A stretch of DNA of 64,000 nucleotides from an uncultured Acidobacteriota bacterium (lineage in GTDB: Bacteria > Acidobacteriota > Thermoanaerobaculia > UBA5066 > Gp7-AA6). Each line of letters opens with the position of its first letter. The stretch's first letter is position 1. A program made the position numbers and the translations under genes. This document shows, piece by piece, positions 10,223-45,041 of this stretch. The DNA lies in the NCBI GenBank assembly GCA_963724465.1, contig CAVRUT010000013.1:64958-128957 (forward strand). The letters are read 5' to 3'. The notes under the pieces were generated by a model, which saw only the letters and a program-made list of their open reading frames with translations, ran no database searches and had not been told where the DNA came from.

Positions 10223-10264
10223 CCGTCCGCCGTCCGCCGTCTGCCGTCCGCCGTCTTCCGTCGA
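10223..10264 (-). repeat. heptanucleotide tandem array, 6 x CCGTCYG (+ strand) / GACGGNN (transcript sense)
   Basis: CCGTCCG CCGTCCG CCGTCTG CCGTCCG CCGTCTT CCGTCGA read directly. Starts 5 nt after the trm112-like stop (10269..10271). Confidence 0.85.
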
Positions 10265-10268
10265 AACC

Positions 10269-10523
10269 CTACCGCCCCGCCGCCTCCGACCCCGGGAGAG
10301 CCTCGTCGACGAGCATCACCGGAATGTCGGAGACGATGGGATAGACGAGGTCGGCCTGGCGCGAGTAGAGGCCCTGCGTCACCACCGGCTCCTCGTCGCG
10401 GAACTTCTCGCGGTACTTCTCGACCAGCGCCTTGCGCGTCGCGTCCTTCAGCTCGATGAGCTCGAGCGGCCCCTTCGTCTTGGGGCAGACCAGAATCGCC
10501 AGCAGTTCCGGATCGACGGCCAT
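10269..10523 (-). CDS. Trm112 family protein
   Basis: [21 protein letters not shown]...[17 protein letters not shown], typical Trm112/YcaR pattern. ATG 10523 is preceded by GGAGGAGAGG. The rest of track ORF 10269..11168 is junk. Confidence 0.75.
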
Positions 10524-10558
10524 GCCTCTCCTCCGCTGTCCGAGTATACCGGCGCCCG

Positions 10559-10996
10559 TCAGAGCGAAGCGAAGATCTCCTTCGGGTGCGACTTCGGGGT
10601 GACTTTCGGGTGCGCCTGCGCGATCCGACCGTCGGGGCCGATGACGTACGTGATCCGGCTCGCGTAACCGGCCTTCGGGTCGTCGGCAGCGCCGTAGGCC
10701 ACTCCGAGCTCGCGCTTGACGTCGCAGAGCAGCGGGAAGGGATACTCGAACTTCTTCGCGAAGGCCGCGTTCTCCTCCACCGTATCGAAGGAGACTCCGA
10801 GGATCTCGGCGCTCTTCTTCCGGAAGTCGGCGTAGAGGTCGCGGAACCCGCAACCCTCGACCGTTCAGCCGGGCGTGTCGGCCTTCGGGTAGAACCAGAG
10901 GACGACGGAGCGGCCGCGATAGTCCGCGAGGCGGCGCGTGGCTCCGGTGTGGTCCTCGACCGCGAAGTCCGGGGCGGGATCTCCGACCTTCAACAT
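10559..10996 (-). CDS. bcp: Bcp-type peroxiredoxin with in-frame TGA at the peroxidatic Cys position (probable selenoprotein)
   Basis: Track ORFs 10865..11053 and 10559..10780 are in the same frame, separated by a single TGA (10865..10867): ...[13 protein letters not shown][TGA]TVEGCGFRD...[22 protein letters not shown] 10996 is preceded by GGAGGAGG. Confidence 0.75.
10837..10862 (-). promoter_or_regulatory. candidate SECIS hairpin 3' of the bcp UGA
   Basis: mRNA UGA-AC-GGUCG-AGGGUU-GCGG-GUU-CCGC-GACC: outer GGUC(G)/(C)GACC and inner GCGG/CCGC stems with a G/U-containing tip about 17-22 nt after the UGA. Confidence 0.45.
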
Positions 10997-11031
10997 CTTC
11001 GGCCTCCTCCACAGCGACTTCAGGATTCCGA

Positions 11032-11859
11032 TCACGGCCGGCCGCCTTCCCAAGTCTCCTTCGCCTCATCATACGCGGGCAGGTCCACGGGCCAGCCGTT
11101 TCGTCGACAACGATCCCACTCCCAGACCCTCGCCCACTTGAGGAAGACGCTCCAGGCCTGAAAGGCACAGAGCACGAAGCCGTGCCGGCCGTCGAGGAAG
11201 CCCGCCTGGATCACGTACATGCGCAGGAAGCGCCAGGCCGGTCGGAAGAGCAGCTCGACCGGGCCGGCGCGACGGCCCTGCCGAAACGCGTCCGCGGCGC
11301 CCCACGTCGCGTAGCGGTCGAGCTTCTCGAGGTATTGCCCGAGGGAGCGGCAAGTGTAGTGCGTCATCGGCACGAGCAGCGTCGGCGTGGGCCCCTCGGC
11401 CGCGAGGTCGACGTGCACACGACGATTGGGATAGCGCGCCGTGCCCCGCCGGATGAGCCGCACGACCTTGTCCGTGGACCAGCCCGAGTGGCGGATGACG
11501 CGGTCGAGGAAGACGTTGTCCCGGCGAACGAAGTAGTGGTCCGCCTCGGGCCCTCCTTCGAGCAGGTCGAGGATCTCGCGTGCGAGCTTCTCCGGGATGC
11601 GCTCGTCCGCGTCGACGATCAGAAGCCACGGCGTCGTCACCTGGTCCATGGCCCAGTTCTTCTGCGCCGCGGAGCCGAAATACTCGCGCTGGACGACCTT
11701 CACACCGGGGACATCGCGGGCGATCTCGACGGTCCGGTCGGTCGAGAAGGAATCGACCAGGAGGATCTCGTCCGCGAAGGCGACGCTCGCGAGACAGTCA
11801 CGAACGTTCGCCTCCTCGTTGAGCGTGGTGATGATCACTGTCAGGCCCGGTCGGGGCAT
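11032..11859 (-). CDS. family 2 glycosyltransferase
   Basis: [14 protein letters not shown]...[11 protein letters not shown]...[11 protein letters not shown] (GT2 DxD region). ATG 11859 is preceded by GAGGGGGAGAG; the track start is 11910. Confidence 0.8.
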
Positions 11860-11921
11860 CTGTTCTCTCCCCCTCAGCCCAACCTTCCCGGCGGGACAGG
11901 CACAGGGCAAGGGGCGTTCTC

Positions 11922-12704
11922 CTAGTCCACCCTCACTTGCACCCGCTCGATCTTCCGCGCCCTCCCGGTGGCCTCGTCCACGTCGATCACCGCGCCCGAG
12001 AGCCGGATGTCCTTCTTCGCCGTCTCGAAGGAGCGCGGGGTCTGCGACAGGAATTTCTCGATGATGCGGTCCTTCGAAAAGCCGATGATTCCCTCGTAGG
12101 CGCCGGTCATCCCGGCGTCCGAGAGATAGGCGGTTCCGCCGGGGCGAATCGTCTCGTCGGCGGTAGCCACGTGCGTGTGGGTCCCGACCACGGCGGAAAC
12201 GCGGCCGTCGAGGTACCAGCCCATCGCGGCCTTCTCGGACGTCGCCTCGGCGTGCATGTCGACTACGATCACTTTCACGTCGCCCGCGCGGGCGAGCTCG
12301 TCGTCGGCCACCCGGAAGGGCGAGTCCGCGTGGTGCGGCATGAAGACCTGCCCCTGAAGGTTCAGGACGCCGACCGGGACGCCCGAAGCCGTCGCCTGCA
12401 CGGTCCAGCCCCGGCCGGGGTTACCCGGGGGGTAGTTGGCCGGCCGCAAGAGCCGGTCCGAGGCGTTCAGCGCGTCGTAGATCTCCTTCTTGTCCCAGAT
12501 GTGGTTGCCCGAGGAGAAGACGTCGATCGGCATCTTCGAGAGCTCCTCGAAGAGGTCGACGGTCAGGCCGAAGCCGCCGGCCGCGTTTTCGACGTTGACG
12601 ACCGTGAAGTCGATCCGGTGGCGGTCGATCACGCCCGTGAGGGCCTCGACGAGCGCGCGCCGGCCCGGCGCTCCGACGACGTCGCCGACGAAGAGGATGT
12701 TCAC
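11922..12704 (-). CDS. ymdB: YmdB-like (TIGR00282) metallophosphoesterase
   Basis: NILFVGDVVG...VNVENAAGGFG...GNHIWDKK...VDMHAEATSEK...GTHTHVATAD. Conserved rny-ymdB synteny as in Bacillus. Confidence 0.85.
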   Translation of the reverse strand: MNILFVGDVVGAPGRRALVEALTGVIDRHRIDFTVVNVENAAGGFGLTVDLFEELSKMPIDVFSSGNHIWDKKEIYDALNASDRLLRPANYPPGNPGRGWTVQATASGVPVGVLNLQGQVFMPHHADSPFRVADDELARAGDVKVIVVDMHAEATSEKAAMGWYLDGRVSAVVGTHTHVATADETIRPGGTAYLSDAGMTGAYEGIIGFSKDRIIEKFLSQTPRSFETAKKDIRLSGAVIDVDEATGRARKIERVQVRVD

Positions 12705-12709
12705 AGGAC

Positions 12710-12796
12710 GTGAACCGCGAGCCGTGAGCCGTGAGCCGGACGCTCTGCGGGGTGACGACAGCTTCGGCTCACGGCTAACGACTTACGGCTTACGAG
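12710..12796 (-). repeat. two-armed heptad repeat element between rny stop and ymdB-like start
   Basis: + strand arm 12710..12737 is GTGAACC GCGAGCC GTGAGCC GTGAGCC. Arm 12762..12796 is CTTCGGC TCACGGC TAACGAC TTACGGC TTACGAG. The arms are reverse complements of each other. Confidence 0.85.
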
Positions 12797-12804
12797 GCCG
12801 GCCC

Positions 12805-14373
12805 TCACCGGGCATACTCCACGGCGCGAGTCTCTCTGATCACCGTGACCTTGATCTGCCCCGGGTACTGCAGCTCGGCCTCGATCTTCTTGGCCACGTC
12901 GCGCGACAGCCACAGGGCCTCGTCGTCGGTGACCCGGTTGGCTTCGACGACGATACGCAGCTCCCGACCTGCCTGGATCGCAAAGGCCTTCTGCACGCCC
13001 TTGAAGCCATCGGCGATGTGCTCGAGCTTTTCCAGGCGCTTGACGTACGTTTCGAGGATCTCGCGCCGTGCCCCCGGGCGCGCCGCGGACAGGGCGTCGG
13101 CGCCGTTGACGAGGACCGCCTCGAGCGAGCGCGGCTCGTAGTCGCCGTGGTGGCACTCCATGGCGTGGATGACCTCGTTCGACTCGCCGAATTTCTTCAG
13201 GACCTCGCGGCCGAGCTCGAGGTGGGTGCCTTCCATCTCCCGGTCGATCGCCTTGCCGATGTCGTGCAGCAAACCCGCGCGGCGCACGACCTCGACGTTC
13301 GCCCCGAGCTCCGCCGCCATGTTCATCGCGAGCCAGCCGACCTCCTTGGAGTGCTGCAGCACGTTCTGGCCGTACGAGGTGCGGTACTTCAGGCGCCCGA
13401 GCATCTTGATGAGCTCGGGATGGAGGTCCGGGATGCCGAACTCGAGGGCCGTCGCCTCCCCTTCCTGGCGGATCTTTTCCCAGAGCTCCGAGCGGACCTT
13501 CTCGACGATCTCCTCGATGCGCGCGGGGTGGATGCGGCCGTCGACGATGAGCTTCTCGAGGGCGTGCCGTGCGACCTCGCGGCGCAGCGGCTCGAAGGCC
13601 GAGATGACGATCGCCTCGGGAGTGTCGTCGATGATGAGGTCGACGCCCGTGGCCGCCTCGAGGGCCCGGATGTTGCGGCCCTCGCGCCCGATGATCCGGC
13701 CCTTGAGGTCGTCGGACGGAAGCTCCACGACCGAGACCGTCGCCTCGACGACAGTGTCGGAGGCCAGGCGCTGGATCGCCATCCCGATGATGCGCCGCGC
13801 CTTCTGGGTGGCCTGCTCGTTGGCCTCTTCCTCGATCCGGCGGATCAGGCCGGCCGACTCGAGCCGCGCCTCGTTCTCGACCGACTTGACGAGATCGCGC
13901 CTGGCGTCCACGGCCGTCAGGCCCGAGATCTGTTCGAGGCGCCTGCGCTGCTCGTCGACGACCTTCTGGACCTCGGCCTGCAGGTCCTCGAGCTTCTTCT
14001 GCTCGTCGCCGAGGGCCTTCTCCTTGCGGCTGTACTCCTCGTCCCGCCGCTCCTGCTGAGCGAGCTTTCGGTCGAGGTTCTCTTCCTTCTGCTGGACCCG
14101 TTTCTCGAGGGCGGCGATTTCCTGGCGGCGGGCCTGCACCGTCTTGTCGAACTCGACGCGGGCGGCGAGGACCTTCTCCTTGGCCTCGATGTCGGCTTCC
14201 CGGATCTTGGAGTCCGCCTGCTTGCGGGCCTCGGCCAGAGCCCGATCCGCCTCGGTCCGGATCCCGAGACGCTCCCGCTCGACCTTCTTGCGCAGGAAGA
14301 GGTAACCGATGGCCAGGAGAACCGCGGCGAGGACGAGTCCCGCCGCGATCGCCATCGCGAAAGATGTGTTCAT
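12805..14373 (-). CDS. rny: ribonuclease Y
   Basis: N-terminal TM helix, long coiled coil, KH ([15 protein letters not shown]) and HD (LLHDIGKA) domains. Preferred ATG 14373 ([12 protein letters not shown]); the track start is 14385. Confidence 0.9.
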
Positions 14374-14843: not shown

Positions 14844-14927
14844 ATCGAGACACCGACTCCTTTCCGCCGCGAGTCTAGTTCGCCTAGGCCAAGGGAGTCA
14901 ACGGTTTAGCGATAACTCGCGGCAGGA

Positions 14928-15197: not shown

Positions 15198-17300
15198 TCA
15201 GTGGCCGAACGCGACGCCCGGCTGGGAGGCGAGCTCGCCCGCCAGGCGCCGCACTTGCGTGTTGATCTCTTCCTGCTCGAGCGTGCGCTCCGCCGACCGG
15301 AACGTCAGCCGGATCGTGGTCTTGACCTTCCCGGCCTCGACGCCGGGACCCTCGTACCGGTCGAGGCACCGGAACGACTCGAGGTGCTCGAGGTTCAGGC
15401 TGCGCACGAACGCGGAGAGCTCGTCCCAGGGAAGGTCCTTCGGCTGCGCGAACGACAGGTCCGCGACGATCGCGGGCAGCGCCGGAAATTCCCGGTACCG
15501 GAACGAACGGGGCCCGGCCGGGATCGCGTCCACGAGCAGCTCGCCCGCGAAGACGGGCGCCGTCAGCCCGCAGCGCTCGCGCTCGGCCCCTGCGACGAGC
15601 CCGACGATTCCGAGCAACTCCCCGGATGCGGTCCGGACGGAGGCCGCCGCCCCCTCCGTGAAGGCCCGAACCTGCGCCGGCTTCCAGAGGAGCTCCGAGG
15701 CGGGCACCCAGGCCTCGAGCAGGGCCTCGACGAGGCCGCGCGCGTCGTAGAAATCCGCCGGGCGCAGCTTCTCGGGAACGCTCCAGTGCGAGCGCCGGTC
15801 TCCCGCGAGCGCGAAGGCGAAGCGCCTCGACTCGTAGGACTCCGGCCTGTCCGACTCTCCGGGCGCTCCGAACGCCCGGCCGACCTCGAAGAGCGCGACC
15901 TCGGAGGCGCCGTGGCGCAGGTTGCGGGCCACGGCCTCGAGGAGCCCCGGCAGCAGTGTCGCACGCAGGTGGCGGCGCGAGGCATCGAGCGGGTTCATCA
16001 GCGAGAGCGGCTCGAGAGCCGTTTCGGTCATGCGCAGCCAGTCGCCGTAGGGCGCTTCGTCGACGTCGCGGTCGACGAACGGGTAGTTCACGGTCTCGAA
16101 GAGCCCCGCGGCCGCCGCGGCGTCGCTCAAGCGGTCCTCGACGCGCCGCAGCGGCTCCTTCACTTCGCCCGCGCCGCCCGACGGCGGCAGGCGCGCGGGC
16201 AGGCGATCGTAGCCGTAGACGCGCAGCACTTCCTCCACGAGGTCGTCTTCGCGCCTGACGTCGGCGCGGAAGAGCGGGATCTTGACCGAGAGGCGCTTGC
16301 CCTTGCGCTCGGTGGTGAAGCCGAGGCGCACGAGCGCCTCCTCGGCAAATTCGAGGTTGAGGCGCGTGTCGCCCGAAAGCAGGCGCAGGCGCGCCAGGCG
16401 CAATGCCGTCCGCCGGACTCGGAAGAGGTTGCCGTGCGCGTCGAGCAGCCCCGGCGCGACCGTTCCTCCCGCCGACTCGACGAGCAGGCGTGCCGCCAGG
16501 TTCAGGGCCCCAGGGATCGCGTCGATGTCGGCGCAGCGCTCGAAGCGGTGCGAGGCGTCGGTGTGCATGCCGAGCCGGCGGGCCGTGCGGCGGACTGTGG
16601 CCGGGTCCCACCAGGCCCCCTCGAGCAGGACGTTCTTCGTCTTCTCGGTGACGGCCGTTTCGAGCCCGCCCATGATGCCGGCCAGCGAGACCGCGCGCTC
16701 GGCGTCTGCCACGACGATGTCGGACGTCTCGAGCGGGCGCTCGACGCCGTCCAGGGTGACGAGCCTCTCGCCCCGGCGGGCCATGCGCACGAAGAGCAGG
16801 CCCCCCGCCAGCAGGTCGAAGTCGAAAGCATGCAGCGGCTGACTCGTGTCCCAGAGCGCATAGTTGGTGGCGTCGACCGCGGCCGAGATCGGCTTTGCGC
16901 CGACCGTGGCCAGGCGCCTGCGCACCAGCTCCGTCGCGGGCCGGTCCTCGACCTCCCGCACCAGTCGAGCGCCGAAGCGGCGGCAGAGGTCGGGAACCTG
17001 GATCACGACGGACGTCACTTGCTCGGTCGTTTCGCCGCTCGAGTCCGGCTCCGCATAGCGCGCGGCGAAGTCGCGCAGCGCCCGGCCCGACATGGCCGCG
17101 ACTTCGCGGGCCAGCCCCCGGTGCCCCATCGCGTCCGGCCGATTCGGGGTGATCTCGGCCTCGAGAACGGTGTCGTCGCCGCGGGCCTCGGCGGACTCGA
17201 TCGGGATGCCTGCCTGCTCGAGCAGCCGCCGCACGCCGTCGGCGCCGCCGACGGCCTCGACGTTCACGAAATCCGAGAGCCAGTCGAGGGAGAACTTCAT
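15198..17300 (-). CDS. pheT: phenylalanine--tRNA ligase beta subunit (short form, no N-terminal OB tRNA-binding domain)
   Basis: MKFSLDWLSDFV...EITPNRPDAMGHRG...B3/4, B5 and FDX-ACB regions. ATG 17300 overlaps the pheS stop (ATGA). Track ORF 15198..18290 is over-extended through pheS in another frame. Confidence 0.9.
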   Translation of the reverse strand: MKFSLDWLSDFVNVEAVGGADGVRRLLEQAGIPIESAEARGDDTVLEAEITPNRPDAMGHRGLAREVAAMSGRALRDFAARYAEPDSSGETTEQVTSVVIQVPDLCRRFGARLVREVEDRPATELVRRRLATVGAKPISAAVDATNYALWDTSQPLHAFDFDLLAGGLLFVRMARRGERLVTLDGVERPLETSDIVVADAERAVSLAGIMGGLETAVTEKTKNVLLEGAWWDPATVRRTARRLGMHTDASHRFERCADIDAIPGALNLAARLLVESAGGTVAPGLLDAHGNLFRVRRTALRLARLRLLSGDTRLNLEFAEEALVRLGFTTERKGKRLSVKIPLFRADVRREDDLVEEVLRVYGYDRLPARLPPSGGAGEVKEPLRRVEDRLSDAAAAAGLFETVNYPFVDRDVDEAPYGDWLRMTETALEPLSLMNPLDASRRHLRATLLPGLLEAVARNLRHGASEVALFEVGRAFGAPGESDRPESYESRRFAFALAGDRRSHWSVPEKLRPADFYDARGLVEALLEAWVPASELLWKPAQVRAFTEGAAASVRTASGELLGIVGLVAGAERERCGLTAPVFAGELLVDAIPAGPRSFRYREFPALPAIVADLSFAQPKDLPWDELSAFVRSLNLEHLESFRCLDRYEGPGVEAGKVKTTIRLTFRSAERTLEQEEINTQVRRLAGELASQPGVAFGH

Positions 17301-18348
17301 GCCTGTCCCGAAAACTGCGACAGGAAGCGCTCGTCCCCTTCGAAGAGCAGGCGCAGGTCCGGGAAGCCGTATTTCAGGAGCGCGACGCGGTCCATCCCGA
17401 GGCCGAAGGCGAAGCCCGTGAACTCCTCGGGGTCGATCGCCACGCCCTGCAGGACGCGTGGGTGGACCATTCCCGCGCCCATGATCTCGATCCAGCCCGA
17501 GCCCTTGCACTTTCCGCAGCCGCTTCCCTTGCAGAAGATGCAGCTCATGGAGACGTCCACGCCCGGCTCGACGAACGGGAAGAAGGTCGGGATGAAGCGC
17601 GTCTTCGTGCCCTTCCCGAAGAGCTCCTCGACGAAGGCGCCGACGGTGCCCTTGAGGTCTGCCATCGAGATGCCCCGGTCCACGACGAGGGCCTCGACCT
17701 GGTGAAAGACGGGCGAGTGGGTCGCGTCCACCTCGTCCTTGCGGTACACCCGTCCCGGGACGATCAGGCGCAGCGGCGCGCCGTGGCGCCGCATCTCGCG
17801 GACCTGCACCGGCGACGTATGCGTCCTCAGGAGAAGGGGCGAGACGGCGTTGCGGTCGACGAACAGCGTGTCCTGCGAGTCGCGCGCCGGGTGGTCCGGC
17901 GGGAAGTTGAGCGCCTCGAAATTGTGGAAGTCGTTTTCGACCTCCGGCCCGTCGGCGACCGAGTAGCCCAGCCTGAGAAAAAAATCCTCGATCTGACGCC
18001 GCACGATCGTGATCGGGTGGAGGCCCCCGGCCCGCGTGCGCCGGCCCGGCAGCGTGACGTCCACCGCCGCGGCGCGGTCGCGCGAGGCCCCCTCGCGCGC
18101 CTCGAGCTCCCGCCCGAGCCGCCCGACGGCCTCCTCGATCTCGGTCTTCGCGGCGTTGGCCCGCGCCCCGAAGCCCGCGCGCTCGGCCGGCGGGAGCGCC
18201 TTCAGCCTCGCAAAGAGCTCCGGAACCAGCCCCTTTCGCGGCCGAGGTAGCGCCCTTTGAGGCGCTCGTAGTCGGCGCGCGACGACACACCCCTGCCGAT
18301 CTCCTCGCGAAAGGAGCGCAAGAGGGCTTCGACGGCGTCCTGCACCAC
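17297..18348 (-). CDS. pheS: phenylalanine--tRNA ligase alpha subunit; one frame break near 18230..18240
   Basis: ORF 17297..18064 has the catalytic core (FNFEALNFPPDHPARD, RTHTSPVQ, FGLGMDRVAL). The N-terminal helical part (VVQDAVEALLRSFREEIG...YERLKGRYLG) is in another frame from GTG 18348. The shift is at a CCCCTTT run. Confidence 0.85.
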
Positions 18349-18353
18349 GTCCC

Positions 18354-18390
18354 GCGTCTACCGTCTACCGCTTGCCGACTTCCGGCTCAC
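18354..18390 (-). repeat. single-arm heptad array filling the rplT-pheS spacer
   Basis: + strand GCGTCTA CCGTCTA CCGCTTG CCGACTT CCGGCTC ACG. In transcript sense UGA-GCCGGAA GUCGGCA AGCGGUA GACGGUA GACGCGG, running from the rplT stop to 5 nt before the pheS GTG. Confidence 0.8.
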
Positions 18391-21543: not shown

Positions 21544-21619
21544 TGGTAGGCGCTAACGGGATCGAACCGTTGACCTCTTCCGTGTGAAGGAAGCGCTCTC
21601 CCAGCTGAGCTAAGCGCCT
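21544..21619 (-). tRNA. tRNA-Val (anticodon CAC), CCA encoded
   Basis: Hand-folded cloverleaf: acceptor AGGCGCT/AGCGCCT, D arm GCTC..GAGC, anticodon stem CTTCC/GGAAG with loop TTCACAC, T arm AACGG-TTCGATC-CCGTT, then ACCA. Confidence 0.9.
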
Positions 21620-21633
21620 GAAGTTCGAAGAAT

Positions 21634-21708
<75 letters not shown>

Positions 21709-32042: not shown

Positions 32043-34866
32043 ATGGGAAAGATCCGAGTCGAAGAGCTCGCACAGCAGATGGGCCTTCCGAGCAAGGAAG
32101 TTCTCTTCCTGCTGCAGTCGATCGGCGTCGACGTGAAGTCGCCGCAGGCCGCGCTCGATGAGTCCACGGTCCTCGCCATCCTGCAGGGGCGCACGCACGC
32201 GCCCAAACAGCTGATCGTCCGGGACACCGAGGCGCGCGCGGCCCGGCCGCAGAAGAGCGCGTTGAACCGCATCAAGATCATCGACCGCCCGGCGCCGGCC
32301 ACGGCAGCCGAGGCGCCCGAAGGCCACGAAGCGGCGGCCCCGCCGCCCGAGCCGGAGCTCCCGCCGGCCGCCCGCAGAGCCGCGGCCGCCGCCGAAGCCA
32401 AGGCCGCAAAGGCGCGCCGCCGAACCCGCCCGGACCGCGGTCGTGCCCTCCGAACCGGAAGCCGAGGCGCCACCGCCCAAGCCCGCGCCCCCGGCGCTGC
32501 CTCGAAAAATCGTCCTTCCACCGCGCCCGACGGTGCCGCCGCGACCCGCGCCCGCGTCAGCGGGTGCAGCCCGCGCCGCGGGTCCGGTCAACCGGCCGAT
32601 GGGACCGGCCGCCGGCCGGCCCATGGGGCCTGCCGCAGGACGTCCGATGGGACCCGCCGCGGGCCGCCCGATGGGCCGCCCGGCCGGACCCTCGGTCTAT
32701 CGCCCCACCCCCGGCGGTCCGGGAGCGCGCCCGATGGGCGGACCCCCGCGCCCCGGGGCGCCCGTCGGCCGCACGGCCCCCGCCGGCCCGGAGCGCGGCG
32801 CGCCCAAGCGCAAGAAGGACGACAAGGAAGAGCAGAAGAAGGCCGCCGCCGGGAAGCGCGGCGCGCGCCCGAAGATCACGGTCGCCGACGAGGTGGACCT
32901 GCGCGAGTTCGTCGGGACGTACCAGGAGGACACCTACTCGGACATCTCGCTGCCGCTCATCGAGAAGACCGGCGAGGAGGGCGAGGCCGTGGCCGAAGCG
33001 CGCCCGGCCTCCAAGTCGGCCATCCGGCGCGCCGCCAAAGAGACCCGTACGCACGATTCGGGGAAGCTCCTCGAGTTCCGCAAGCCCGCGCCCACGGGCC
33101 CCGTGTTCTTCACCGAGGGCGTCACCGTCAAAGAGCTCTCCGAGAAGCTCGGCGTGCTCGCCCGCGACATCCAGCGCCTGCTCATGCAGCGCGGCGTGCT
33201 CGCGACGGTCAACCAGGCCCTCGACGCTTCCACCGCCGTGCAGATCGCCAAGGAAATCGGAGTCGAAGCCGCGGTCGTCTCCTTCGAAGAGGAGCTCGAC
33301 CTCTCCCGCTCAGCCCGCGAGTCCACCGAGGGCGCAATCGCCACGGAGCGCGTGCCGCGCGCGCCCGTCGTGACCGTCATGGGCCACGTCGACCACGGCA
33401 AGACGTCCTTACTCGACGCCATCCGGCAGACCGACGTCGCGGCCGGCGAGGCCGGAGGCATCACGCAGCACATCGGCGCCTACCGGGTCCAGATTCACGG
33501 CAAGCCGATCGTCTTTCTCGACACGCCCGGCCACGAGGCCTTCACGTCCATGCGCGCGCGCGGCGCCAAGGCCACCGACATCGTCGTCCTGGTCGTCGCG
33601 GCCGACGACTCCGTCATGCCGCAGACGATCGAGGCGATCGCGCACGCGAAGGCCGCGAAGGTGCCGATCGTGGTGGCGATCAACAAGATCGACAAGCCCA
33701 ATGCCAACGTGGACCGGGTCAAGAAGGAGCTCGCCGACCACGGCGTGCTGCTCGAGGCCTGGGGCGGCGAGACTCCGGCGGCCGAGGTCTCGGCGCTGAA
33801 GAAGCAGGGCATCGACCACCTGCTCGAGCTCATCCTGCTCGTGGCCGACATGCAGGAGCTGACGGCCCCGGCGGCCGAGGAGGCGCGGGGCGTCGTCCTC
33901 GAGGCGCGGCGCGAGGCCGGCCGCGGCAACATGGCGACGGTCCTGGTACAGGCCGGCACGCTCAAGGTCGGCGACGTCTTCTTCGCGGGCTCGGTTTTCG
34001 GCCGCGTGCGCTCGATGCACGACGACCGCGGCGAGAAGGTCAACGCGGCCGGCCCCGCGACACCGGTCGAGGTGACCGGTTTCGAGGACCTGCCCCAGGC
34101 GGGGGACACGTTCCAGGTGGTCGAGGACGAAACCAAGGCCCGGTCGGTCGTCTCGTTCCGCCAGCAGAAGGAGCGGGAGAAGGCGATGGCCGGCAGCTCC
34201 CGCCTCTCGCTCGAGCAGCTGTTCAGCAAGATCCAGGAAGGCAAGGTCAAGGACCTGCCCATCATCCTGAAGGCGGACGTCTCGGGCTCGATGGAAGTGC
34301 TGTCGCAGGCGCTCAAGGGGCTTTCGAACGACAAGGTGAAGATTTCTCTACTGCACGCGGGAGTCGGCGCCATCACCATCAACGACGTCCTGCTCGCGTC
34401 CGCCTCCGGCGCGGTGATCGTGGGCTTCAACGTCCGGCCCGAGAAGAAGGCGGCCGACGAGGCCGAGAAGGCCGGCGTCGAGATCCGCCTCCACACGGTC
34501 ATCTACAACGTCACCGACGAGATCAAGAAAGCCATGGAAGGGCTGCTCGAGCCCACCCTGAAGGAGGTCGCGCGGGGGCGCGCCGAGGTGCGCAACACGT
34601 TCAAGGTGCCGAAGTTCGGCGTCGTCGCCGGCTGCTACGTCACCGAGGGCACGATCCCGCGCAGCGCCCAGGTTCGCCTTCTGCGAGACAACCGGGTGAT
34701 CTACGAGGGCAAGGTCGGGTCGCTGCGCCGCTTCAAGGACGACGTCTCGGAGGTCAAACAGGGCTTCGAATGCGGCATCGGCCTCGACCGGTACCAGGAC
34801 CTGAAGGTGGGCGACATCATCGAGGCGTTCCAGGTCGAGAAGGTCGCCGGGGTGATGGGTTCGTGA
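32043..34866 (+). CDS. infB: translation initiation factor IF-2; N-terminal domain is in a different frame from the rest
   Basis: IF2_N domain [29 protein letters not shown] is in frame 32043. The Pro/Ala-rich linker, second IF2_N, G domain ([26 protein letters not shown]) and C-terminal domains are in frame 32443..34866. The shift lies somewhere in 32300..32445. Confidence 0.9.
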
Positions 34867-34952
34867 GCCGTTAGCCGGGAGCCGTTAGCCGACAGAGGTC
34901 CTGCCCCGGCTCACGACTCACGGTTCACGGCTCACGGTTCACGGCTTACGTC
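34863..34952 (+). repeat. two-armed heptad repeat element spanning infB stop to DUF503 start
   Basis: Left arm GTGAGCC GTTAGCC GGGAGCC GTTAGCC GACAGAG. Right arm TCACGAC TCACGGT TCACGGC TCACGGT TCACGGC TTACGTC. The infB TGA is inside the first heptad; ATG at 34955. Confidence 0.9.
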
Positions 34953-34954
34953 CC

Positions 34955-35242
34955 ATGGTGATCGCCTACGCCGTTTTCGACCTCCACCTGCCCGGATGCC
35001 GGGGCCTGAAGGAGAAGCGGATGATCGTCAAGAGCCTGAAGACGCGCATCCGGAACGAATTCCAGGTCTCGGCCGCGGAAGTCGCGAACCAGGACCTGCT
35101 GCAGCGCGCGGCGCTCGGCGTGGCCGCCGTCGGGAGCGACCAGCCGACGCTCGACGCGGTCCTGCAGCACGTCCTTCAGTTCGTCGAGGAAAACCTCGAC
35201 GGGGAGATCCTCGAGTATCGCAATGAGTTCATCCATGTGTAG
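34955..35242 (+). CDS. DUF503 (YlxP-like) protein
   Basis: 95 aa, VFDLHLPGCRGLKEKRMIVKSLKTRIRNEF. Conserved position between infB and rbfA. Confidence 0.8.
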   Translation: MVIAYAVFDLHLPGCRGLKEKRMIVKSLKTRIRNEFQVSAAEVANQDLLQRAALGVAAVGSDQPTLDAVLQHVLQFVEENLDGEILEYRNEFIHV

Positions 35243-35338
35243 GCCGGAAGCCGTAAGCCGAAAGCCGAAAGCCGAAAGCCCGAGCCACACCCGCTCCGGC
35301 GAGCCTCGGCTCACGACTCACGGCTCACGGCTCACGGC
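35239..35338 (+). repeat. two-armed heptad repeat element spanning DUF503 stop to rbfA start
   Basis: Left arm GTAGGCC GGAAGCC GTAAGCC GAAAGCC GAAAGCC GAAAGCC. Right arm TCACGAC TCACGGC TCACGGC TCACGGC, directly abutting the rbfA ATG 35339. Confidence 0.9.
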
Positions 35339-36642: not shown

Positions 36643-36742
36643 TTCGCTTCCGCCTCCCGGCGGCTGGCATCCCGCCCCCGGGCTATGGTAGGCTTCGCGG
36701 CTTATTAAAAAGAGTGAGTGTTTTGAGTAGCTTGGAGGCAAG

Positions 36743-37124: not shown

Positions 37125-39353
<2,229 letters not shown>

Positions 39354-39381
39354 ATTTCGGAGGTCGGATTTCGGATTTGAA
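39354..39381 (+). repeat. single-arm heptad array immediately after pnp stop
   Basis: TAG then ATTTCGG AGGTCGG ATTTCGG ATTTGAA, followed by the small hairpin GCGGC-AGAGGC-GCCGC and ACTTTTCATTT. Confidence 0.8.
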
Positions 39382-39404
39382 GCGCGGCAGAGGCGCCGCA
39401 CTTT

Positions 39405-40199: not shown

Positions 40200-40957
40200 C
40201 GCGAGCCGAAGAGACGCTCGAAGTTCGCCGTCGTCGCTGCGGCCACGGTCGCGAGGTCGGACCCCTTCACCTCGGCGAGCCTCTTCGCCGTCTCGAGCAC
40301 GTAGGCCGGTTCGCACGGCTTGCCGCGGTGGGGAACCGGCGAAAGAAACGGCGTGTCCGTCTCGACGAGCATGGCCTCGAGGGGTAGCCCCAGGGCGGCC
40401 GCCCGGATGTTCTCGGCGGCGCGGAACGTGATCATGCCCGAAAAGGACACCAGGTAGCCGAGGTCGAGGGCCTTCTTTCCGTAGGCCGCGTCCTCCGTAA
40501 ACGAGTGAAAGACCCCGGCTCGGTCGCGCGCCCCGCGCCGGGCGAGGAGGGAGAGCATCTCGGCGCCGCTCTCCCGATTGTGGAGGAGCACCGGGAGACC
40601 GAGCCGGCCTGCACAGTCGAGCATCCACTCGAGGACCTCGATTTGCTTTTCCCGTGGCGAATGGTCGTAGTGGAAATCGAGCCCGACTTCCCCGATCGCG
40701 ACGACTTTCGGCGAGCGCGCGAGCGCCTCGAAGGCTTCGGCGTCGCGCGCCGGGTCGAAGTCCTTCGCCTCGTGGGGATGGACGCCGACGGCCGCGACGA
40801 CGCCCTCCCGCCCGGCGGCGAGATCGGCCGCCGCGGCCGAGTCCTCGAGCGTCGTCCCTGGAACGAGAAAGCGCACGACGCCGGCCGCCCGCCCGCGCTC
40901 GATCAGAAGGTCGGCGCCCGCCCCCATCTGCAGGTGGCAGTGGGAATCGGCGAGCAA
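40196..40957 (-). CDS. tatD: TatD family metal-dependent hydrolase
   Basis: LADSHCHL...AIGEVGLDFHY...LPVLLHNRES...FHSF...VETDTPFL. TTG start 40957 lies 2 nt after the metG stop. Confidence 0.85.
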   Translation of the reverse strand: MLADSHCHLQMGAGADLLIERGRAAGVVRFLVPGTTLEDSAAAADLAAGREGVVAAVGVHPHEAKDFDPARDAEAFEALARSPKVVAIGEVGLDFHYDHSPREKQIEVLEWMLDCAGRLGLPVLLHNRESGAEMLSLLARRGARDRAGVFHSFTEDAAYGKKALDLGYLVSFSGMITFRAAENIRAAALGLPLEAMLVETDTPFLSPVPHRGKPCEPAYVLETAKRLAEVKGSDLATVAAATTANFERLFGSR

Positions 40958-40958
40958 G

Positions 40959-42902
40959 CTACTTGACCTTGCTGCCCGGCGGCACGTCCGCCGGAACGTC
41001 CAGGAGCACGGGCACCCCGGCCTCGCCGACGGAAGCCGCAAGGACCATGCCGTTGGACTCGACGCCCATGAGCTTGGCGGGCTTCAGGTTCGCGACGACC
41101 ACGACGTTGCGACCGACGAGAGCCTCGGGCTCGTACTGCGCCGCGATGCCGGCCACGATCTGGCGCCGCTCGTCGCCCAGGTCTACCTCGAGGCGCATCA
41201 GCCTGTTCGACTTCGGCACGCGCTCGGCAGTCACGATCTTCGCCGTGCGCAGCCGCACCTTCTGAAAGTCCTCGATCGCGATCCGGTCGTCGGCGGGCGC
41301 GGCCGGCGCCGCAGGGGGCGTCGTGGGGCTCGTGGGTTCCGTCATGGTGGCATCCTTCTCCTTGAAGTAGGCGGCGGCGTCCACGCGCGGAAAGAGCGCG
41401 GGCGCTTCCGGCATCCGGGTCGAGACGGGCAGCCTTCCCCACGCGAGGTCCGCAGGGGTCGGGTCTTCGGCAGGCAGACCGAAGGTCTCGAAGATTTTGC
41501 GGCTCGTGACCGGGACGAAGGGCGAGAGCATCACCGCCGAGAGTCGCACGCCCTCGGCGGCCGCGGAAAGGACGCGGTGGAGCCGCGGCGACCGCGCGCC
41601 CTCGTCCTTGCGGATCTTCCACGGCTCGCGGGACACGACGTAGCCGTTGACGGCGGTCAGGAGCCTCCACACGGCCTCGAGCGCGCGGTTGAACTGGCAC
41701 TCGCGCATCGCAGCGCGCCACTCGGCCTCCGCCTCTGCGAACGCCCCGATCACTTCGCTGTCCGCGCCGACCTCGTTCGGCGTGCCGTCGAAAGACTGCC
41801 GGCACAGCGCGGCAACGCGCGAGACGGTGTTGCCGAGATCGTTGGCGAGATCGGCATTGAAGCGCGTCAGAAACGCCTCGTCCGAGAAGCTCGCGTCCTG
41901 GCCGAAAGCCATCTCTCGCATCAGGAAGTACCGGAGCGCGTCCGGGCCGAAATCGGCGACGAGCTGATCTGGCCGCACGATGTTGCCCACGGACTTGGAA
42001 ACCTTCTTCGCGTCGCGCAGCCACCAGCCGTGCGCCCAGACCGTCGTCGGCAGCGGCAGGCCGGCCGAGAGCAGGAAGGCGGGCCAGTACACCGCGTGGA
42101 AGCGCAGGATGTCCTTGCCGATGAAGTGCACGCGCTCGGCTCCGGGGTGGTCCCAGAACTCGCGGTACCGCGCGTCGTCCTCGGCGCCGAAGCCGAGCGC
42201 CGTGATGTAGTTGGCCAGCGCGTCGAGCCAGACGTACACGACGTGGCCCGGATGCCCCGGAAACGGGATGCCCCACTGCACCTTGGACCGCGAGACCGAG
42301 AGGTCGTTCAATCCGCCCCGGACGAACGAGACGACTTCGGCCAGGCGGCTCTCGGGCCGGACGAATTCGGGGTGGCTCTCGTAATGGGCGAGCAGCGGCC
42401 CCGCGTACTTCGAGAGCCGGAAGAAGACGTTGTCCTCGGATTCCCAGACGGTCGCCCGGCCGTGGACCGGGCACCGCCTCTCGGCATCGAGCTCCTTCTC
42501 GGTGTAGAAGGCCTCGCAGCTCGAGCAGTACCAGCCCTCGTGCTTCGCCGTGTAGAAGTCGCCGGCGGCCGCGATCCGGGCGATCAGGGCCTCGACGCCG
42601 CGGCGGTGGCGCGGCTCGGTCGTGCGGATGAAGTCGTCGTTCCGGATCTCGAAGGTGCGATACAGCTGGTGATAGCGCTCGACGACCCGGTTGGCGAGCT
42701 CGAGCGGCTCGATCCCCTGCGCGGCGGCGGCCTTTTCGATGTTCTGGCCGTGCTCGTCGGTGCCCGTCAGGAAACGCGTCGTCTCGCCCGACAGCCTCCG
42801 AAAGCGGGTGACGACGTCGGTGACGACGGTCGTGTAGATGTGCCCGATGTGGGGCAGGTCGTTGACGTAGTAGATCGGCGTCGTCGCGTAGAACGTCTTC
42901 AT
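40959..42902 (-). CDS. metG: methionine--tRNA ligase with C-terminal Trbp111/EMAP-like tRNA-binding domain
   Basis: MKTFYATTPIYYVNDLPHIGH (HIGH), KVSKSVGN (KMSKS), zinc knuckle CSSCEAF...CPVHG, C-terminal FQKVRLRTAKIV...VVVVANLKPAKLMGVESNGMVLAA. The track ORF is over-extended to 43844. Confidence 0.95.
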   Translation of the reverse strand: MKTFYATTPIYYVNDLPHIGHIYTTVVTDVVTRFRRLSGETTRFLTGTDEHGQNIEKAAAAQGIEPLELANRVVERYHQLYRTFEIRNDDFIRTTEPRHRRGVEALIARIAAAGDFYTAKHEGWYCSSCEAFYTEKELDAERRCPVHGRATVWESEDNVFFRLSKYAGPLLAHYESHPEFVRPESRLAEVVSFVRGGLNDLSVSRSKVQWGIPFPGHPGHVVYVWLDALANYITALGFGAEDDARYREFWDHPGAERVHFIGKDILRFHAVYWPAFLLSAGLPLPTTVWAHGWWLRDAKKVSKSVGNIVRPDQLVADFGPDALRYFLMREMAFGQDASFSDEAFLTRFNADLANDLGNTVSRVAALCRQSFDGTPNEVGADSEVIGAFAEAEAEWRAAMRECQFNRALEAVWRLLTAVNGYVVSREPWKIRKDEGARSPRLHRVLSAAAEGVRLSAVMLSPFVPVTSRKIFETFGLPAEDPTPADLAWGRLPVSTRMPEAPALFPRVDAAAYFKEKDATMTEPTSPTTPPAAPAAPADDRIAIEDFQKVRLRTAKIVTAERVPKSNRLMRLEVDLGDERRQIVAGIAAQYEPEALVGRNVVVVANLKPAKLMGVESNGMVLAASVGEAGVPVLLDVPADVPPGSKVK

Positions 42903-42955
42903 GCGGAACGCGAAAGATATCTCAGGCATCCGGAACGGGGAACCCGGGGACCGCC

Positions 42956-43660
42956 TCACAGCAGACCCGCCTCCCGGAACGACACGCAGCCCTCCCGGCC
43001 CACGACGATGTGGTCGAGCAGGCGCACTCCCACCGATTCCGACGCCGCCGCCAGCCGGCGCGTGAACTCGCGGTCCTCGCGCGAGGGCGTCGGGTCCGCC
43101 GAGGGGTGGTTGTGGTACAGGATGACGGCCGCCGCCCGTCCGACGAGGGCCCGCCGCAGGATCTCGCGTGGCTCGACGACCGCGCGGTCGAGCGTGCCGC
43201 GGTAGATGTCGGGATCGTTCTTCAGGAGCCGGTTTCGAGCGTTGAGAAAGAGGGCCCCCGTTCGCTCCTGCGTGTCGTCGGCCTGGGCCCGGCGCAGGAA
43301 CTCCTTGACGAGGCGCGGCTCGTTCAAGAGGTCGCGGCCCGCGAGCGTCTCGGCAGGCAGTCGCCGCGCGATCTCGAGGGCGGCCGCGATCGCGGCGGCC
43401 CGCGTCGGGCCGATGCCCCGCTCCGTCGAGAGCTCCGGCGCCGTGACGCCGGCCAGGCCGATGAGGCCCCCGCGCGTCGCCAGAAGGCTCCGGGCGCGGT
43501 CGAGCGCGCTCTCTCCCGGGATCCCCGTGCGCAGCAGGAGCGCCAGGAGCTCCTCGTTCGACAGCGAGCCCGGCCCCAGGCGCAGGAGCCGTTCCCGTGG
43601 CCGCTCGTCCGAAGGCAGGTCGCAGATACGGAAGGCGCGTCGCGTCGCGAGTTCGGTCAT
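42956..43660 (-). CDS. radC: RadC-like JAB/MPN domain protein
   Basis: PRERLLRLGPGSLSNEELLALLLRTG...VILYHNHPSADPTPSREDREFTRRL (JAMM motif). ATG 43660. Confidence 0.85.
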   Translation of the reverse strand: MTELATRRAFRICDLPSDERPRERLLRLGPGSLSNEELLALLLRTGIPGESALDRARSLLATRGGLIGLAGVTAPELSTERGIGPTRAAAIAAALEIARRLPAETLAGRDLLNEPRLVKEFLRRAQADDTQERTGALFLNARNRLLKNDPDIYRGTLDRAVVEPREILRRALVGRAAAVILYHNHPSADPTPSREDREFTRRLAAASESVGVRLLDHIVVGREGCVSFREAGLL

Positions 43661-43721
43661 GGTTCGTCGCCGGCGAGAACCGCCCGCGGACCCGGGGGAG
43701 GACCCGGAGATAATCGCACGG

Positions 43722-43945
43722 ATGCCGGATCCCGTACAGCCCCCCTGGCGCACGATCCTCGTCGCCATAGGCGTCGCGTTTCTCGCGCTCGGCCTCGCGT
43801 GGCCCGTGCGTGTCGCGCTTGCTGGGCAGGCTTCCCGGCGACATCGTGGTCCGCCGCGAGAGGCTGGACCTTCGCCTTTCCGATCGTGACCTGCCTGCTG
43901 CTCTCGCTCCTGCTTTCGCTTCTGTTCTGGCTGTTCCGGCGCTGA
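43722..43945 (+). CDS. DUF2905 family small membrane protein; 2 frame breaks
   Basis: RTILVAIGVAFLALGLAWP (43206..43889 frame), LLGRLPGDIVVRRE (43810..44085 frame) and GWTFAFPIVTCLLLSLLLSLLFWLF (43010..43945 frame) together match the DUF2905 pattern as I remember it. Confidence 0.5.
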
Positions 43946-43948
43946 GGG

Positions 43949-45004
43949 TCAGTCCCCGTCGGGTCCGTCGGGCGCCACGCCCTCGGGGACCAGCACGATC
44001 TTGCCGTGCTGCTCGCCCGACTCCATGCGGGCGTAGGCGGCCGCGGCCTCGGACAGGGGGAACACTCGATCGACGCGGGGCTTGAGTCTGCGCGCCGCCA
44101 CCGCGGCGTAGAGCGCTCGGAACTCCCGGTCGTTCGACATCGTGGAGCCCAGGATCGAAAGGTGCTTCCAGTAGATGAGGCGGATCTCCTCCTTGGGGTT
44201 GGGCCCGGACGTCGCGCCGCAGGTCACGATGCGGCCGGCCTTGGCGCAGGCCTTCAGGGACGTCATCCAGGTCGCCTCGCCGACCGTATCCACGACGACG
44301 TCCACGCCGCGCTTGTCGGTGTGCCGCCGGACCGCCTGGGCGACATCCTCGGACTTGTAGTCGATCACGAACTCGGCGCCGTCCTCCCGGGCGCGGCGCG
44401 CCTTTTCTTCACCCGACGTGGTCGCCAGCACGCGGGCGCCGCACAACACGGCGATCTCCAGGGCCGCGGCCCCCACCCCGCCGCCGGCACCGTGGATCAA
44501 CACGGACTCTCCCGCCCTCACGGCCGCGCGGCCGACGATCATGCGCCAGGCCGTCTGGTAGGCGAGCGGAAAGGCCGCGGCCTCCGCGAAGCCGAAACCT
44601 GCCGGAACGGGGAAGAAGTTGCGCCGCGGGAGCACGATTTTCTCCGCGAAAGTGCCCGGGGCGTGCTCGCCGACGATCCCGTACGACACGCAGAGGCTCT
44701 GCTCCCCCGCCCGGCAGAACTCGCACGCGTTGCAGTAGAGCCCGGGCTGCACGAGCACGGGGTCCCCGACGGCCAGGTCCTCGACGCCTTCGCCCACGGC
44801 GTCCACGACGCCCGCGCCGTCCGCGCCCGGGATCTGCGGCAGCGGCACGCCAGGAATCCCGTTGCGCACGAAGATGTCGAGGTGGTTCATCGCGGCCGCG
44901 CGGATCGCGACGCGCGCCTCGCCCCGCCCGGGCGAGGGATCGGGCCGGTCGCCGTACTGCAGCACTTCGTTGCCGCCGTGCCGGGTGAAGAAGATGGCTT
45001 TCAT
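43949..45004 (-). CDS. NADPH:quinone oxidoreductase / zinc-binding dehydrogenase family
   Basis: 351 aa MDR fold, VAIRAAAMNHLD, VLIHGAGGGVGAAALEIA, ...GKIVLVP. Confidence 0.8.
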   Translation of the reverse strand: MKAIFFTRHGGNEVLQYGDRPDPSPGRGEARVAIRAAAMNHLDIFVRNGIPGVPLPQIPGADGAGVVDAVGEGVEDLAVGDPVLVQPGLYCNACEFCRAGEQSLCVSYGIVGEHAPGTFAEKIVLPRRNFFPVPAGFGFAEAAAFPLAYQTAWRMIVGRAAVRAGESVLIHGAGGGVGAAALEIAVLCGARVLATTSGEEKARRAREDGAEFVIDYKSEDVAQAVRRHTDKRGVDVVVDTVGEATWMTSLKACAKAGRIVTCGATSGPNPKEEIRLIYWKHLSILGSTMSNDREFRALYAAVAARRLKPRVDRVFPLSEAAAAYARMESGEQHGKIVLVPEGVAPDGPDGD

Positions 45005-45013
45005 CGAAACCTC

Positions 45014-45041
45014 GGGGTTCGAATTTCGAATTTCGAAATTA
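45014..45041 (-). repeat. AT-rich heptad array between upstream stop and quinone oxidoreductase start
   Basis: + strand GGGGTTC GAATTTC GAATTTC GAAATTA. In transcript sense UGA-UAAUUUCG AAAUUCG AAAUUCG AACCCCG, then GAGG SD and AUG 45004. TTCGAA cores are palindromic. Confidence 0.8.

Follow-up and report, generated by a model that had tools for sequence, protein, structure and literature searches.

Heptanucleotide arrays and hairpin-capable inverted pairs behind stop codons in a genome segment of an uncultured Acidobacteriota bacterium

Bacterial tandem repeats of heptamers have been on record since about 1990 (the cyanobacterial STRR), but, to our knowledge, how they originate and what they do has not been established. 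Here we analyze heptanucleotide (heptad) arrays that fill spacers between genes in a 64,000-nucleotide stretch of an uncultured soil Acidobacteriota bacterium (contig CAVRUT010000013.1 of assembly GCA_963724465.1, positions 64,958 to 128,957; hereafter the window, whose G+C content is 69% and in which all positions are counted unless a relative is named). On balance, we think it probable that the window elements are intergenic DNA palindromes resembling repetitive extragenic palindromic (REP) sequences, with heptanucleotide microsatellites as arms, which survive behind stop codons and whose hairpin would keep the flanking genes translationally coupled.

Several described systems come close. 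As Mrazek et al. 2007 is summarized in two later papers (PMC4679880, PMC4692102), heptanucleotides are the most abundant long simple-sequence repeat (LSSR) in prokaryotes and are ascribed to polymerase slippage. Among the GGGAATC arrays of Xanthomonas (Rehm et al. 2015, PMC4692102), X. campestris has 70 convergent pairs capable of forming stem-loops. These repeats are 89-93% intergenic and lie mostly between co-oriented open reading frames (ORFs), with few between divergent ones, at a mean of 28 nt from the upstream ORF, some overlapping its stop codon; they are transcribed, and their length and sequence vary by species while the single or paired type is kept (PMC4692102). In Geobacter metallireducens (Aklujkar et al. 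2009, PMC2700814), pairs of opposite-strand sites at variable distance consist of five tandem heptanucleotides MTYCTGA, for example at proB/proA, and 49 copies of four tandem GGACCGG are found in this one genome, its sister species having none. The TAACTGA arrays of Beggiatoaceae and cyanobacteria (MacGregor 2015, PMC4679880) stand a few nucleotides before start codons that lack a canonical ribosome-binding site, including those in ribosomal-protein operons; because the unit carries stop codons, its overlap with coding ends is limited, and a translational role is suspected. Related heptamers are the cyanobacterial STRR (Nostoc preprint 10.1101/2022.06.06.494920). Finally, the nearest well-studied hairpin repeats are the REP/BIME/REPIN sequences (Bertels & Rainey 2011, PMC3116915), whose inverted doublets form hairpins of ~100 nt.

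Period-7 arrays and inverted pairs in the window

An earlier note, made from the letters of the window alone, had reported strict 7-nt periodicity in seven spacers, and all seven indeed carry period-7 arrays according to Tandem Repeats Finder, two of them short (Table 1). A self-match scan found eight period-7 runs covering 250 nt of the window, against 0-1 runs each for periods 4, 5, 8, 10, and 11, and the enrichment of period 7 is seen in relatives too. At every one of the seven sites 3-6 units follow each other head to tail beyond chance, as in heptanucleotide LSSRs; the arrays at pnp and upstream of a zinc-type alcohol dehydrogenase (ADH) gene have 3-4 units each, the latter being the weakest member, and a pattern search for the array at 10223-10264 gave 6 matches where 1.9 were expected. 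The three largest elements, at rny/ymdB, infB/DUF503, and DUF503/rbfA, are inverted array pairs of the form (GTGAGCC)n, a loop of 15-25 nt, and (GGCTCAC)n. The initial description as single tandem arrays had missed this hairpin form and applies to the one-armed sites.

The predicted RNA stems of the three large elements measure ~30 bp and are interrupted in every heptad. Their minimum free energies, with z-scores computed against dinucleotide shuffles, are -53.6 kcal/mol (z -5.2) at infB/DUF503, -53.3 kcal/mol (z -5.6) at DUF503/rbfA, and -57.0 kcal/mol (z -4.2) at rny/ymdB, while the one-armed window arrays tested fold no better than shuffles (rplT/pheS, z -1.45; the array at 10223-10264, z -0.55). 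Across the window and its relatives, where we count 21 inverted pairs of the Xanthomonas type, the bipartite elements in all spacers of at least 40 nt reach z-scores of -3 to -9.4, and their stems begin -3 to +5 nt from the stop codon and end 0-12 nt before the start codon. Unit counts vary from arm to arm and from one window copy to another, and a comparison of the loops of the three window copies yielded no convincing alignment, so that only the heptad arms are common to them. The GTGAGCC family occupies four window junctions up to 22 kb apart and occurs nowhere else in the window.

With respect to the genes, the arrays begin 0-9 nt past the upstream stop codon, slightly closer than the 0-11 nt first given. 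The gap is 0 nt at infB and rplT, whose TGA was correctly seen to lie within a first GTGAGCC heptad, and likewise at DUF503, pnp, and the ORF upstream of ADH; it is 4-9 nt at a Trm112-like ORF and at rny. On the other side, the array ends 0-5 nt from the start codons of ymdB, pheS, DUF503, and rbfA. Within 30 nt upstream of these four codons there is no Shine-Dalgarno (SD) motif, defined as GGAG, GAGG, or AGGA; such a site was found wanting there, as the earlier note had observed along with SD-type sites at other junctions. Such motifs do precede rpsO, rplT, thrS, truB, nusA, and other genes of the window, indicating that the organism uses SD sites, and the ADH start has a GAGG at -9.

Table 1. 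Heptad elements of the window, with their units, flanking codons, and supporting evidence
Element	Position	Strand	Arms or units	Flanking codons and genes	Tandem Repeats Finder, period 7	Basis
infB/DUF503 hairpin element	34863-34952	+	left arm 34863-34891, GTGAGCC GTTAGCC GGGAGCC GTTAGCC G; loop 34892-34906; right arm 34907-34950, six GGCTCAC-type units	infB stop TGA 34864-34866, inside first heptad; DUF503 ATG at 34955	34862-34891; 34907-34950	sequence, Tandem Repeats Finder, RNA fold, orthologous hairpins
DUF503/rbfA hairpin element	35243-35338	+	left arm 35243-35286, GCCGGAA GCCGTAA GCCGAAA x3; loop about 35287-35306; right arm 35307-35338, CGGCTCA CGACTCA CGGCTCA CGGCTCA CGGC	DUF503 stop TAG 35240-35242; rbfA ATG 35339; stem flush with both	35243-35280; 35307-35338	sequence, RNA fold
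rny/ymdB hairpin element	12710-12796	-	5' arm 12796-12763, GTAAGCC GTAAGTC GTTAGCC GTGAGCC; loop 12762-12740; 3' arm 12739-12710, GGCTCAC GGCTCAC GGCTCGC GGTTCAC (minus strand)	rny stop 12805-12807; ymdB GTG 12702-12704	12709-12738; 12761-12794	sequence, RNA fold, Pfam
rplT/pheS one-armed array	18349-18390	-	GTGAGCC GGAAGTC GGCAAGC GGTAGAC GGTAGAC GCGGGAC	rplT stop TGA 18387-18389, in first heptad; pheS GTG 18346-18348	18355-18370	sequence, frames
Single array	10223-10264	-	(GACGGNN)x6, transcribed strand	4-9 nt past TAG (10269-10271) of Trm112-like ORF; upstream of Wzy_C ORF	10220-10262	sequence, frames, pattern search
Short array, pnp	39354-39381	+	ATTTCGG AGGTCGG ATTTCGG ATTT	directly 3' of pnp stop (39351-39353)	39353-39378	
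Short array, ADH	45014-45041	-	(AATTTCG)x3	between upstream ORF stop (45042-45044) and ADH start (45002-45004)	45018-45037	sequence, Tandem Repeats Finder score 40

The genes around the arrays were identified with Pfam. On the plus strand they form the run rimP-nusA-infB-DUF503-rbfA-truB-rpsO-pnp and on the minus strand the runs thrS-infC-rpmI-rplT-pheS-pheT and rny-ymdB, the last pair recognized by RNase_Y_N/HD/KH and YmdB; Pfam also names the array neighbors ADH and the Trm112-like ORF beside a Wzy_C ORF. Automatic gene calling gave a map fragmented by frameshifts, and the Pfam-verified junctions were used for the spacers instead. The infB gene (32043-34866) is split over two frames, with a change of the N-terminal frame at ~32300-32400, the start frame of pheS (17297-18348; GTG at 18348) changes at ~18235, at a G run, and other same-strand frame switches are numerous. 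The splits of infB and pheS are probably indel errors of the long-read metagenome assembly and not signs of pseudogenes. Also within infB, a 24-nt tandem repeat in 4 copies (32592-32687) encodes (PMGPAAGR)n in the N-terminal region of IF2, and two adjoining tRNA-Val genes (anticodons CAC and GAC; 21544-21708, minus strand) lie just upstream of thrS. Rfam, searched with the whole window at gathering threshold, returned only two tRNA matches and no family for the arrays.

Two simple functions were considered and set aside. A scan of the window found a single terminator, the conserved intrinsic one at 39384-39399, which comes with its T-run after the pnp array; what follows the junction hairpins is a start codon, with no U-tract or T-run. 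A stop triplet within a heptad would block every frame across three units, but such closure is not general either, the number of sense frames closed ranging from 0 to 3.

Turnover of the elements among relatives

The junctions were compared in an operon set from about 30 Thermoanaerobaculia-like relatives in independent assemblies (long-read ENA assemblies, L001-L006; short-read JGI soil contigs, L127-L150 and L207-L210; and, for the rplT operon, L211-L228). The nearest named relatives of the window DUF503 protein are metagenome-assembled genomes (MAGs) of Thermoanaerobaculia (Acidobacteriota). At infB/DUF503, 15 of 22 distinct relatives have inverted heptad pairs, two have other hairpins, and five have short spacers (25-43 nt), which in L004, L134, and L150 also form small flush stems. 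At least five unrelated units are used at this one junction, namely GTGAGCC (the window, L001, L002, L208), GGGAGAC (L127, L129), GCTGTCA/AGCTTTC (L006, L130, L139, L146), GGCGGNN (L138), and ACGTTAA (L141). Thus, the CGG/CCG core proposed in the earlier note describes the window arrays and is not general, since relatives use CAGCT, ACGTT, and GGGAAT cores. In a rough neighbor-joining tree, the unit family tracks phylogeny in part; yet the elements of the sister taxa L129 and L002 are unrelated to each other, and there are lineages without any.

The other spacers are occupied more sporadically. Fifteen of 28 distinct relatives have a DUF503/rbfA spacer of at most 12 nt (4-12 nt, typically 6, without an SD motif). 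Inverted heptad pairs fill it in the window (96 nt), L127 (81 nt), L137 (89 nt), and L146 (79 nt), one-armed arrays in L140, L141, and L006, and a non-heptad palindrome in L142 and L144; the filled spacers are scattered over the lineages and represent independent fillings. Between metG and tatD, L002 and L004 have TAG-C-ATG where L001 and L006 have a heptad hairpin of ~85 nt. A heptad hairpin separates the truB stop from the conserved rpsO leader in L001 and L006 only. From the pnp stop to the conserved terminator, we find a heptad array in the window and, longer but of the same family, in L001, a GC hairpin in L002, and a non-heptad palindrome in L006. In relatives, either a 4-nt overlap or a 7-nt gap is seen between rplT and pheS, L215 being the only one to share the window array, at its GTGAGCCGGAA start. 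Close relatives thus show the same junctions in three states, empty at 0-12 nt, seeded at 18-36 nt, and filled at 70-110 nt, and a comparison of filled with empty sites at DUF503/rbfA and metG/tatD revealed no evident target-site duplication.

The relatives also bear on an eighth, degenerate array suspected at 36643-36684: it has no period-7 signal and corresponds to the nonconserved part of the truB-rpsO spacer. This highly variable stretch just past the truB stop contrasts with the strongly conserved rpsO leader CTGTGGTAGGCTTCGCGGCTTATTAAAA...TTGGAGGC (window 36685-36742; L001, L002, L004, L006, L207, L208), probably the promoter and S15 leader region.

Close relatives differ by whole units. 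L208/L210 and L209, whose DUF503 proteins are identical, have infB/DUF503 spacers of 76 and 68 nt, with one heptad fewer in the left arm, and differ at DUF503/rbfA by a 30-nt insertion with two heptads; L216 and L220 (170 versus 163 nt) differ by exactly one unit. L207, the closest relative of the window (95% nucleotide identity in DUF503), has the same infB/DUF503 element with its core changed in both arms together (AACCG and CGGTT, versus AGCCG and CGGCT in the window), and at DUF503/rbfA its spacer is 18 nt long and contains only two heptads, in contrast to the 96-nt hairpin of the window. In both the window and L127, the DUF503/rbfA spacer is filled with the unit of the genome's own infB/DUF503 junction, and L006 carries one unit at two loci.

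A unit family looks like a 5-nt core plus two variable positions. The 222 kb of the window and close relatives hold about 55 arrays, and a single genome can contain five or more heptad families that are unrelated, with cores such as AGCCG, GACGG, TTCGG, and CAGCT. Runs of at least four consecutive NNAGCCG units were found in at least 120 contigs, from Streptomyces, Acidobacteriota, Gemmatimonadota, Planctomycetota, Myxococcota, Halomonas, and others. Among the matches listed, these are mostly one-armed and reach up to 56 units, an inverted partner is hinted at in only ~14 of 123, and those of other phyla show no consistent proximity to stop codons; the microsatellite is accordingly generic, and its hairpin form is much rarer. 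The 56 units occur in a Saprospiraceae MAG (L039, 6052-6448). One-armed (NNAGCCG)n microsatellites are common in Streptomyces, Halomonas, and Gemmatimonadota, several of them at contig ends.

The slots taken by heptads are also used by non-heptad palindromes (in L142, L144, L006, and L221). One such repeat, with the core GTCATCCCGAGCG.../...CTCGGAATGAC, sits in post-stop slots in L006 (14404-14450) and in the DUF503/rbfA spacers of L142 and L144; a search of the window for GTCATCCCGAGCG found no copy. In the infC-rpmI spacer, L221 (1072-1269) and L225 (1140-1269), which encode the same L20 protein, have three versus two copies of a palindromic unit of ~68 nt, GGCGCCGAGTTGAAGCGGCAGAGCCGCTTAACTCGGCC..., which, being intercistronic and variable in copy number, recalls the mycobacterial interspersed repetitive units (MIRUs). 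The rpmI-rplT spacer of L216/L217 (1331-1500) and L220 (224-386) contains an inverted CGGGAAT/ATTCCCG pair, i.e., the Xanthomonas GGGAATC heptamer, and a normal GAAGGAG SD site follows this hairpin. The pheS-pheT spacer of L221/L224 (2951-3167) holds a highly structured 217-nt insert (-122 kcal/mol) that is not heptad-periodic; pheS and pheT overlap in other relatives.

Start codons are affected at several sites. The Wzy_C (O-antigen ligase-like) ORF of the window (9050-10315, minus strand) looks like membrane-segment coding sequence up to ~10220, offers no ATG, GTG, or TTG before 10105, and stays open, in one frame, through the heptads at 10223-10264. The tatD gene starts in L001 with a TTG that overlaps the last heptad, and in L006 its sole in-frame ATG lies in the hairpin loop. 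These cases indicate that heptad elements can displace or supply start codons. As the elements also supply stop codons and fill spacers, they will mislead gene callers and operon predictions in MAGs of soil Acidobacteriota.

Possible origins and roles

In the explanation that we favor, that of REP-like palindromes with microsatellite arms, the number of units would change by replication slippage in 7-nt steps, and the arms would stay alike through copying from one to the other, so that a change in one arm shows up in its partner as well. Family-specific heptads would reach new sites by some copying process and would persist only in transcribed noncoding slots behind stop codons (stop to start, stop to terminator, or stop to promoter), where they may be harmless; the arrays would then look stop-anchored because they survive only there. 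In the mRNA, the inverted pair would fold into an interrupted stem of 21-40 bp whose base sets the stop codon ~0-12 nt from the start codon. The downstream genes without SD sites may ancestrally have been translated by termination-reinitiation over a gap of 0-12 nt or an overlap. Since the insert is self-complementary, it would fold and leave the stop and the SD-less start adjacent, and coupling could persist despite the ~90 nt inserted. Such folding in vivo and such coupling are inferred, as are the DNA-level steps. Likely by-products, as known for REP sequences, are a barrier to 3' exonucleases and a slowing of ribosomes at the stop codon. Liang, Rudd, and Deutscher are said to have reported in 2015 that in E. 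coli many REPs are found no more than 15 nt from a stop codon and influence how the gene before them is translated.

Among the readings first offered for the arrays, a REP-like family fits best. The hairpins, the transcribed post-stop positions, the absence of arrays from divergent spacers, the presence/absence differences between relatives, and the slots shared with ordinary non-heptad palindromes all agree with it. The idea of devices for termination-reinitiation coupling retains plausibility as a consequence, given the SD-less starts and the 0-12 nt or overlapping junctions of relatives, but we see no sign of selection for coupling, as detailed below. Because the window loops are not homologous and no target-site duplication was seen, the elements are not classical miniature inverted-repeat transposable elements, which have flanking duplications and a conserved interior, nor REPINs copied whole.

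Several points weigh against the REP-like explanation. Local slippage alone cannot place one unit at loci 22 kb apart, and neither a mobilizing enzyme, in the 64 kb of genome at hand, nor a target-site duplication was found. The context of the arrays beyond the junctions fetched does favor it, 10 of 14 being no farther than 10 nt from a facing stop codon and not one falling into a divergent spacer, but these figures come from a small sample whose gene contexts were assigned by an ad hoc method based on G+C at third codon positions (GC3) that is noisy in other phyla. The hairpin kept at infB/DUF503 in most relatives, together with the flush stems of short spacers, could reflect selection for structure at that junction. 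In addition, the evidence is of the sequence level throughout.

The alternative that survives best, although we consider it unlikely, is that the hairpins are selected RNA devices which bridge stop and start codons, tune termination-reinitiation and protein ratios, and/or protect the upstream mRNA from 3' exonucleases. Such devices would account for the stop-stem-start geometry seen in almost every long spacer, whether built of heptads or not, and in the outgroup L150, for the persistence of the infB/DUF503 hairpin despite full sequence turnover with jointly changing arms, for downstream genes without SD motifs, the essential pheS among them, and for junction hairpins that are not terminators. 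However, joint arm changes are equally expected from DNA-level copying between arms, many relatives do without any insert (6-nt spacers), and unstructured one-armed arrays are tolerated at the same DUF503/rbfA junction in L140, L141, and L006. Moreover, since every G-U pair of a sense fold corresponds to an A-C mismatch in antisense, selection on RNA predicts a better sense fold. In a comparison of 21 bipartite elements of known orientation, partly related and hence of limited power (a further point to be held against our explanation), 9 folded better in sense and 11 in antisense (Wilcoxon p=0.58), with 46 G-U pairs in the sense and 61 in the antisense folds; the window DUF503/rbfA element is 17 kcal/mol more stable in antisense (-69.2 versus -51.9 kcal/mol). 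This lack of asymmetry suggests that the palindromy is a property of the DNA and shows no adjustment of the structure to the mRNA.

It is tempting to speculate, although we would give this rather long odds, that the hairpins serve as evolvable couplers: a ribosome ending at the 5' base of the stem would melt it and be handed to the SD-less start at the 3' base, so that gain or loss of units or a shift of register would tune cotranslation (infB-DUF503-rbfA, rplT-pheS, rny-ymdB), with a heptad-copying mechanism supplying new post-stop sites. Be that as it may, the same conserved junctions, empty, seeded, or filled in close relatives, with units replaced wholesale and arms changing in concert, constitute a natural experiment. 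Inserts before SD-less genes, of which pheS is essential, make the spread of the repeats testable, as well as termination-reinitiation over a hairpin of ~90 nt.

Improbable in our view is a role as DNA-level sites, bound by a nucleoid protein, gyrase, or IHF/HU or adopting non-B DNA (cruciform or quadruplex) that affects replication or supercoiling; protein-bound sites of this sort have been put forward for REP/BIME sequences and for Geobacter. The strand symmetry of the folding energies would suit it, as would the published readings of the G. metallireducens pairs (PMC2700814) and the Xanthomonas repeats (PMC4692102). Yet unrelated families within one genome and the quick replacement of units at a site fit poorly with one sequence-specific protein, most units lack the G-runs of quadruplexes, and a restriction to transcribed post-stop slots is not predicted.

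We give still less credit to the proposal, raised in a similar form by the earlier note, that the arrays are bound as single-stranded RNA by an oligomeric protein (TRAP-, HutP-, CsrA-, Csp-, or S1-like) contacting one triplet per heptad. The 7-nt spacing does resemble HutP sites, one-armed arrays stand directly before SD-less starts (pheS in the window; DUF503/rbfA in L140 and L006), and for TAACTGA arrays, S1, Csp, or CsrA has been suggested by MacGregor (PMC4679880). But the repeats of the major elements are base-paired, whereas TRAP- or HutP-type sites are single-stranded with one conserved triplet and one cognate protein; the cores differ within one genome, orthologous units are replaced among close relatives, both orientations relative to transcription occur, and no candidate protein gene is linked. 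An artefact of the long-read metagenome assembly, which the frameshifts of infB and pheS and the many same-strand frame switches might have suggested, is hardly credible and as an account of the class is refuted, exact copy numbers aside, because the same architecture recurs at the same junctions in independent Illumina contigs of JGI and ENA and in NCBI MAGs, the very support that the earlier note had named as a test.

Relation to known heptamer repeats and palindromes

Among the known systems, the TAACTGA and STRR heptamers resemble the present elements as intergenic arrays next to starts without ribosome-binding sites. They differ in that the TAACTGA arrays are nearly always direct (169 sets, versus one inverted) and lack predicted structure, with a single unit, in AT-rich hosts. 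MIRUs, reportedly described by Supply and colleagues in 1997, are said to be tandem repeats between the genes of operons that abut stop and start codons and are thought to preserve coupling; their units are 46-101 bp long, with small ORFs and no hairpins, whereas ours are 7 nt long and the elements palindromic.

The likeness to REP/BIME/REPIN sequences lies in abundant extragenic palindromes of high copy number, in transcribed co-directional or convergent spacers, in genome-specific families, and in presence/absence polymorphism. A REP is, however, a fixed imperfect palindrome of 20-40 nt copied as a unit and linked to a RAYT (REP-associated tyrosine transposase) gene, while the elements here have tandem 7-nt arms in variable number and unrelated loops, with neither a fixed palindrome nor a homologous spacer. 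No RAYT was seen in the 64-kb window, a genome-wide search for RAYT not having been made.

The earlier note knew of no described element of this architecture in high-GC bacteria, a statement that the Geobacter and Xanthomonas pairs correct. With G. metallireducens the elements share paired, opposite-strand tandem heptanucleotides that are genome-specific; the units are different, and the Geobacter sites were read as binding sites of a global regulator of the IHF/HU type, in a study without stop/start or folding analysis. The agreement with Xanthomonas goes further, comprising tandem heptamers in convergent pairs, stem-loops, positions just past a stop codon, and co-oriented, rarely divergent ORFs, and the relative L216 even carries the identical heptamer CGGGAAT/ATTCCCG (rpmI-rplT). 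The differences are that Xanthomonas has one dominant G-rich unit, read as quadruplex-forming, where we find several unrelated units mostly without G-runs (GTGAGCC, GACGGNN, and ATTTCGG contain no three-G run, and of the relatives only L216 carries CGGGAAT, the quadruplex-capable unit being GGGNATC); that its repeats are far from the downstream ORF (mean 160 nt), where many of ours are also flush with an SD-less start; and that the phylum here is Acidobacteriota. Taken together, these elements are a lineage-specific, multi-family case of the long-recorded heptamer-repeat palindromes and not a new kind of element.

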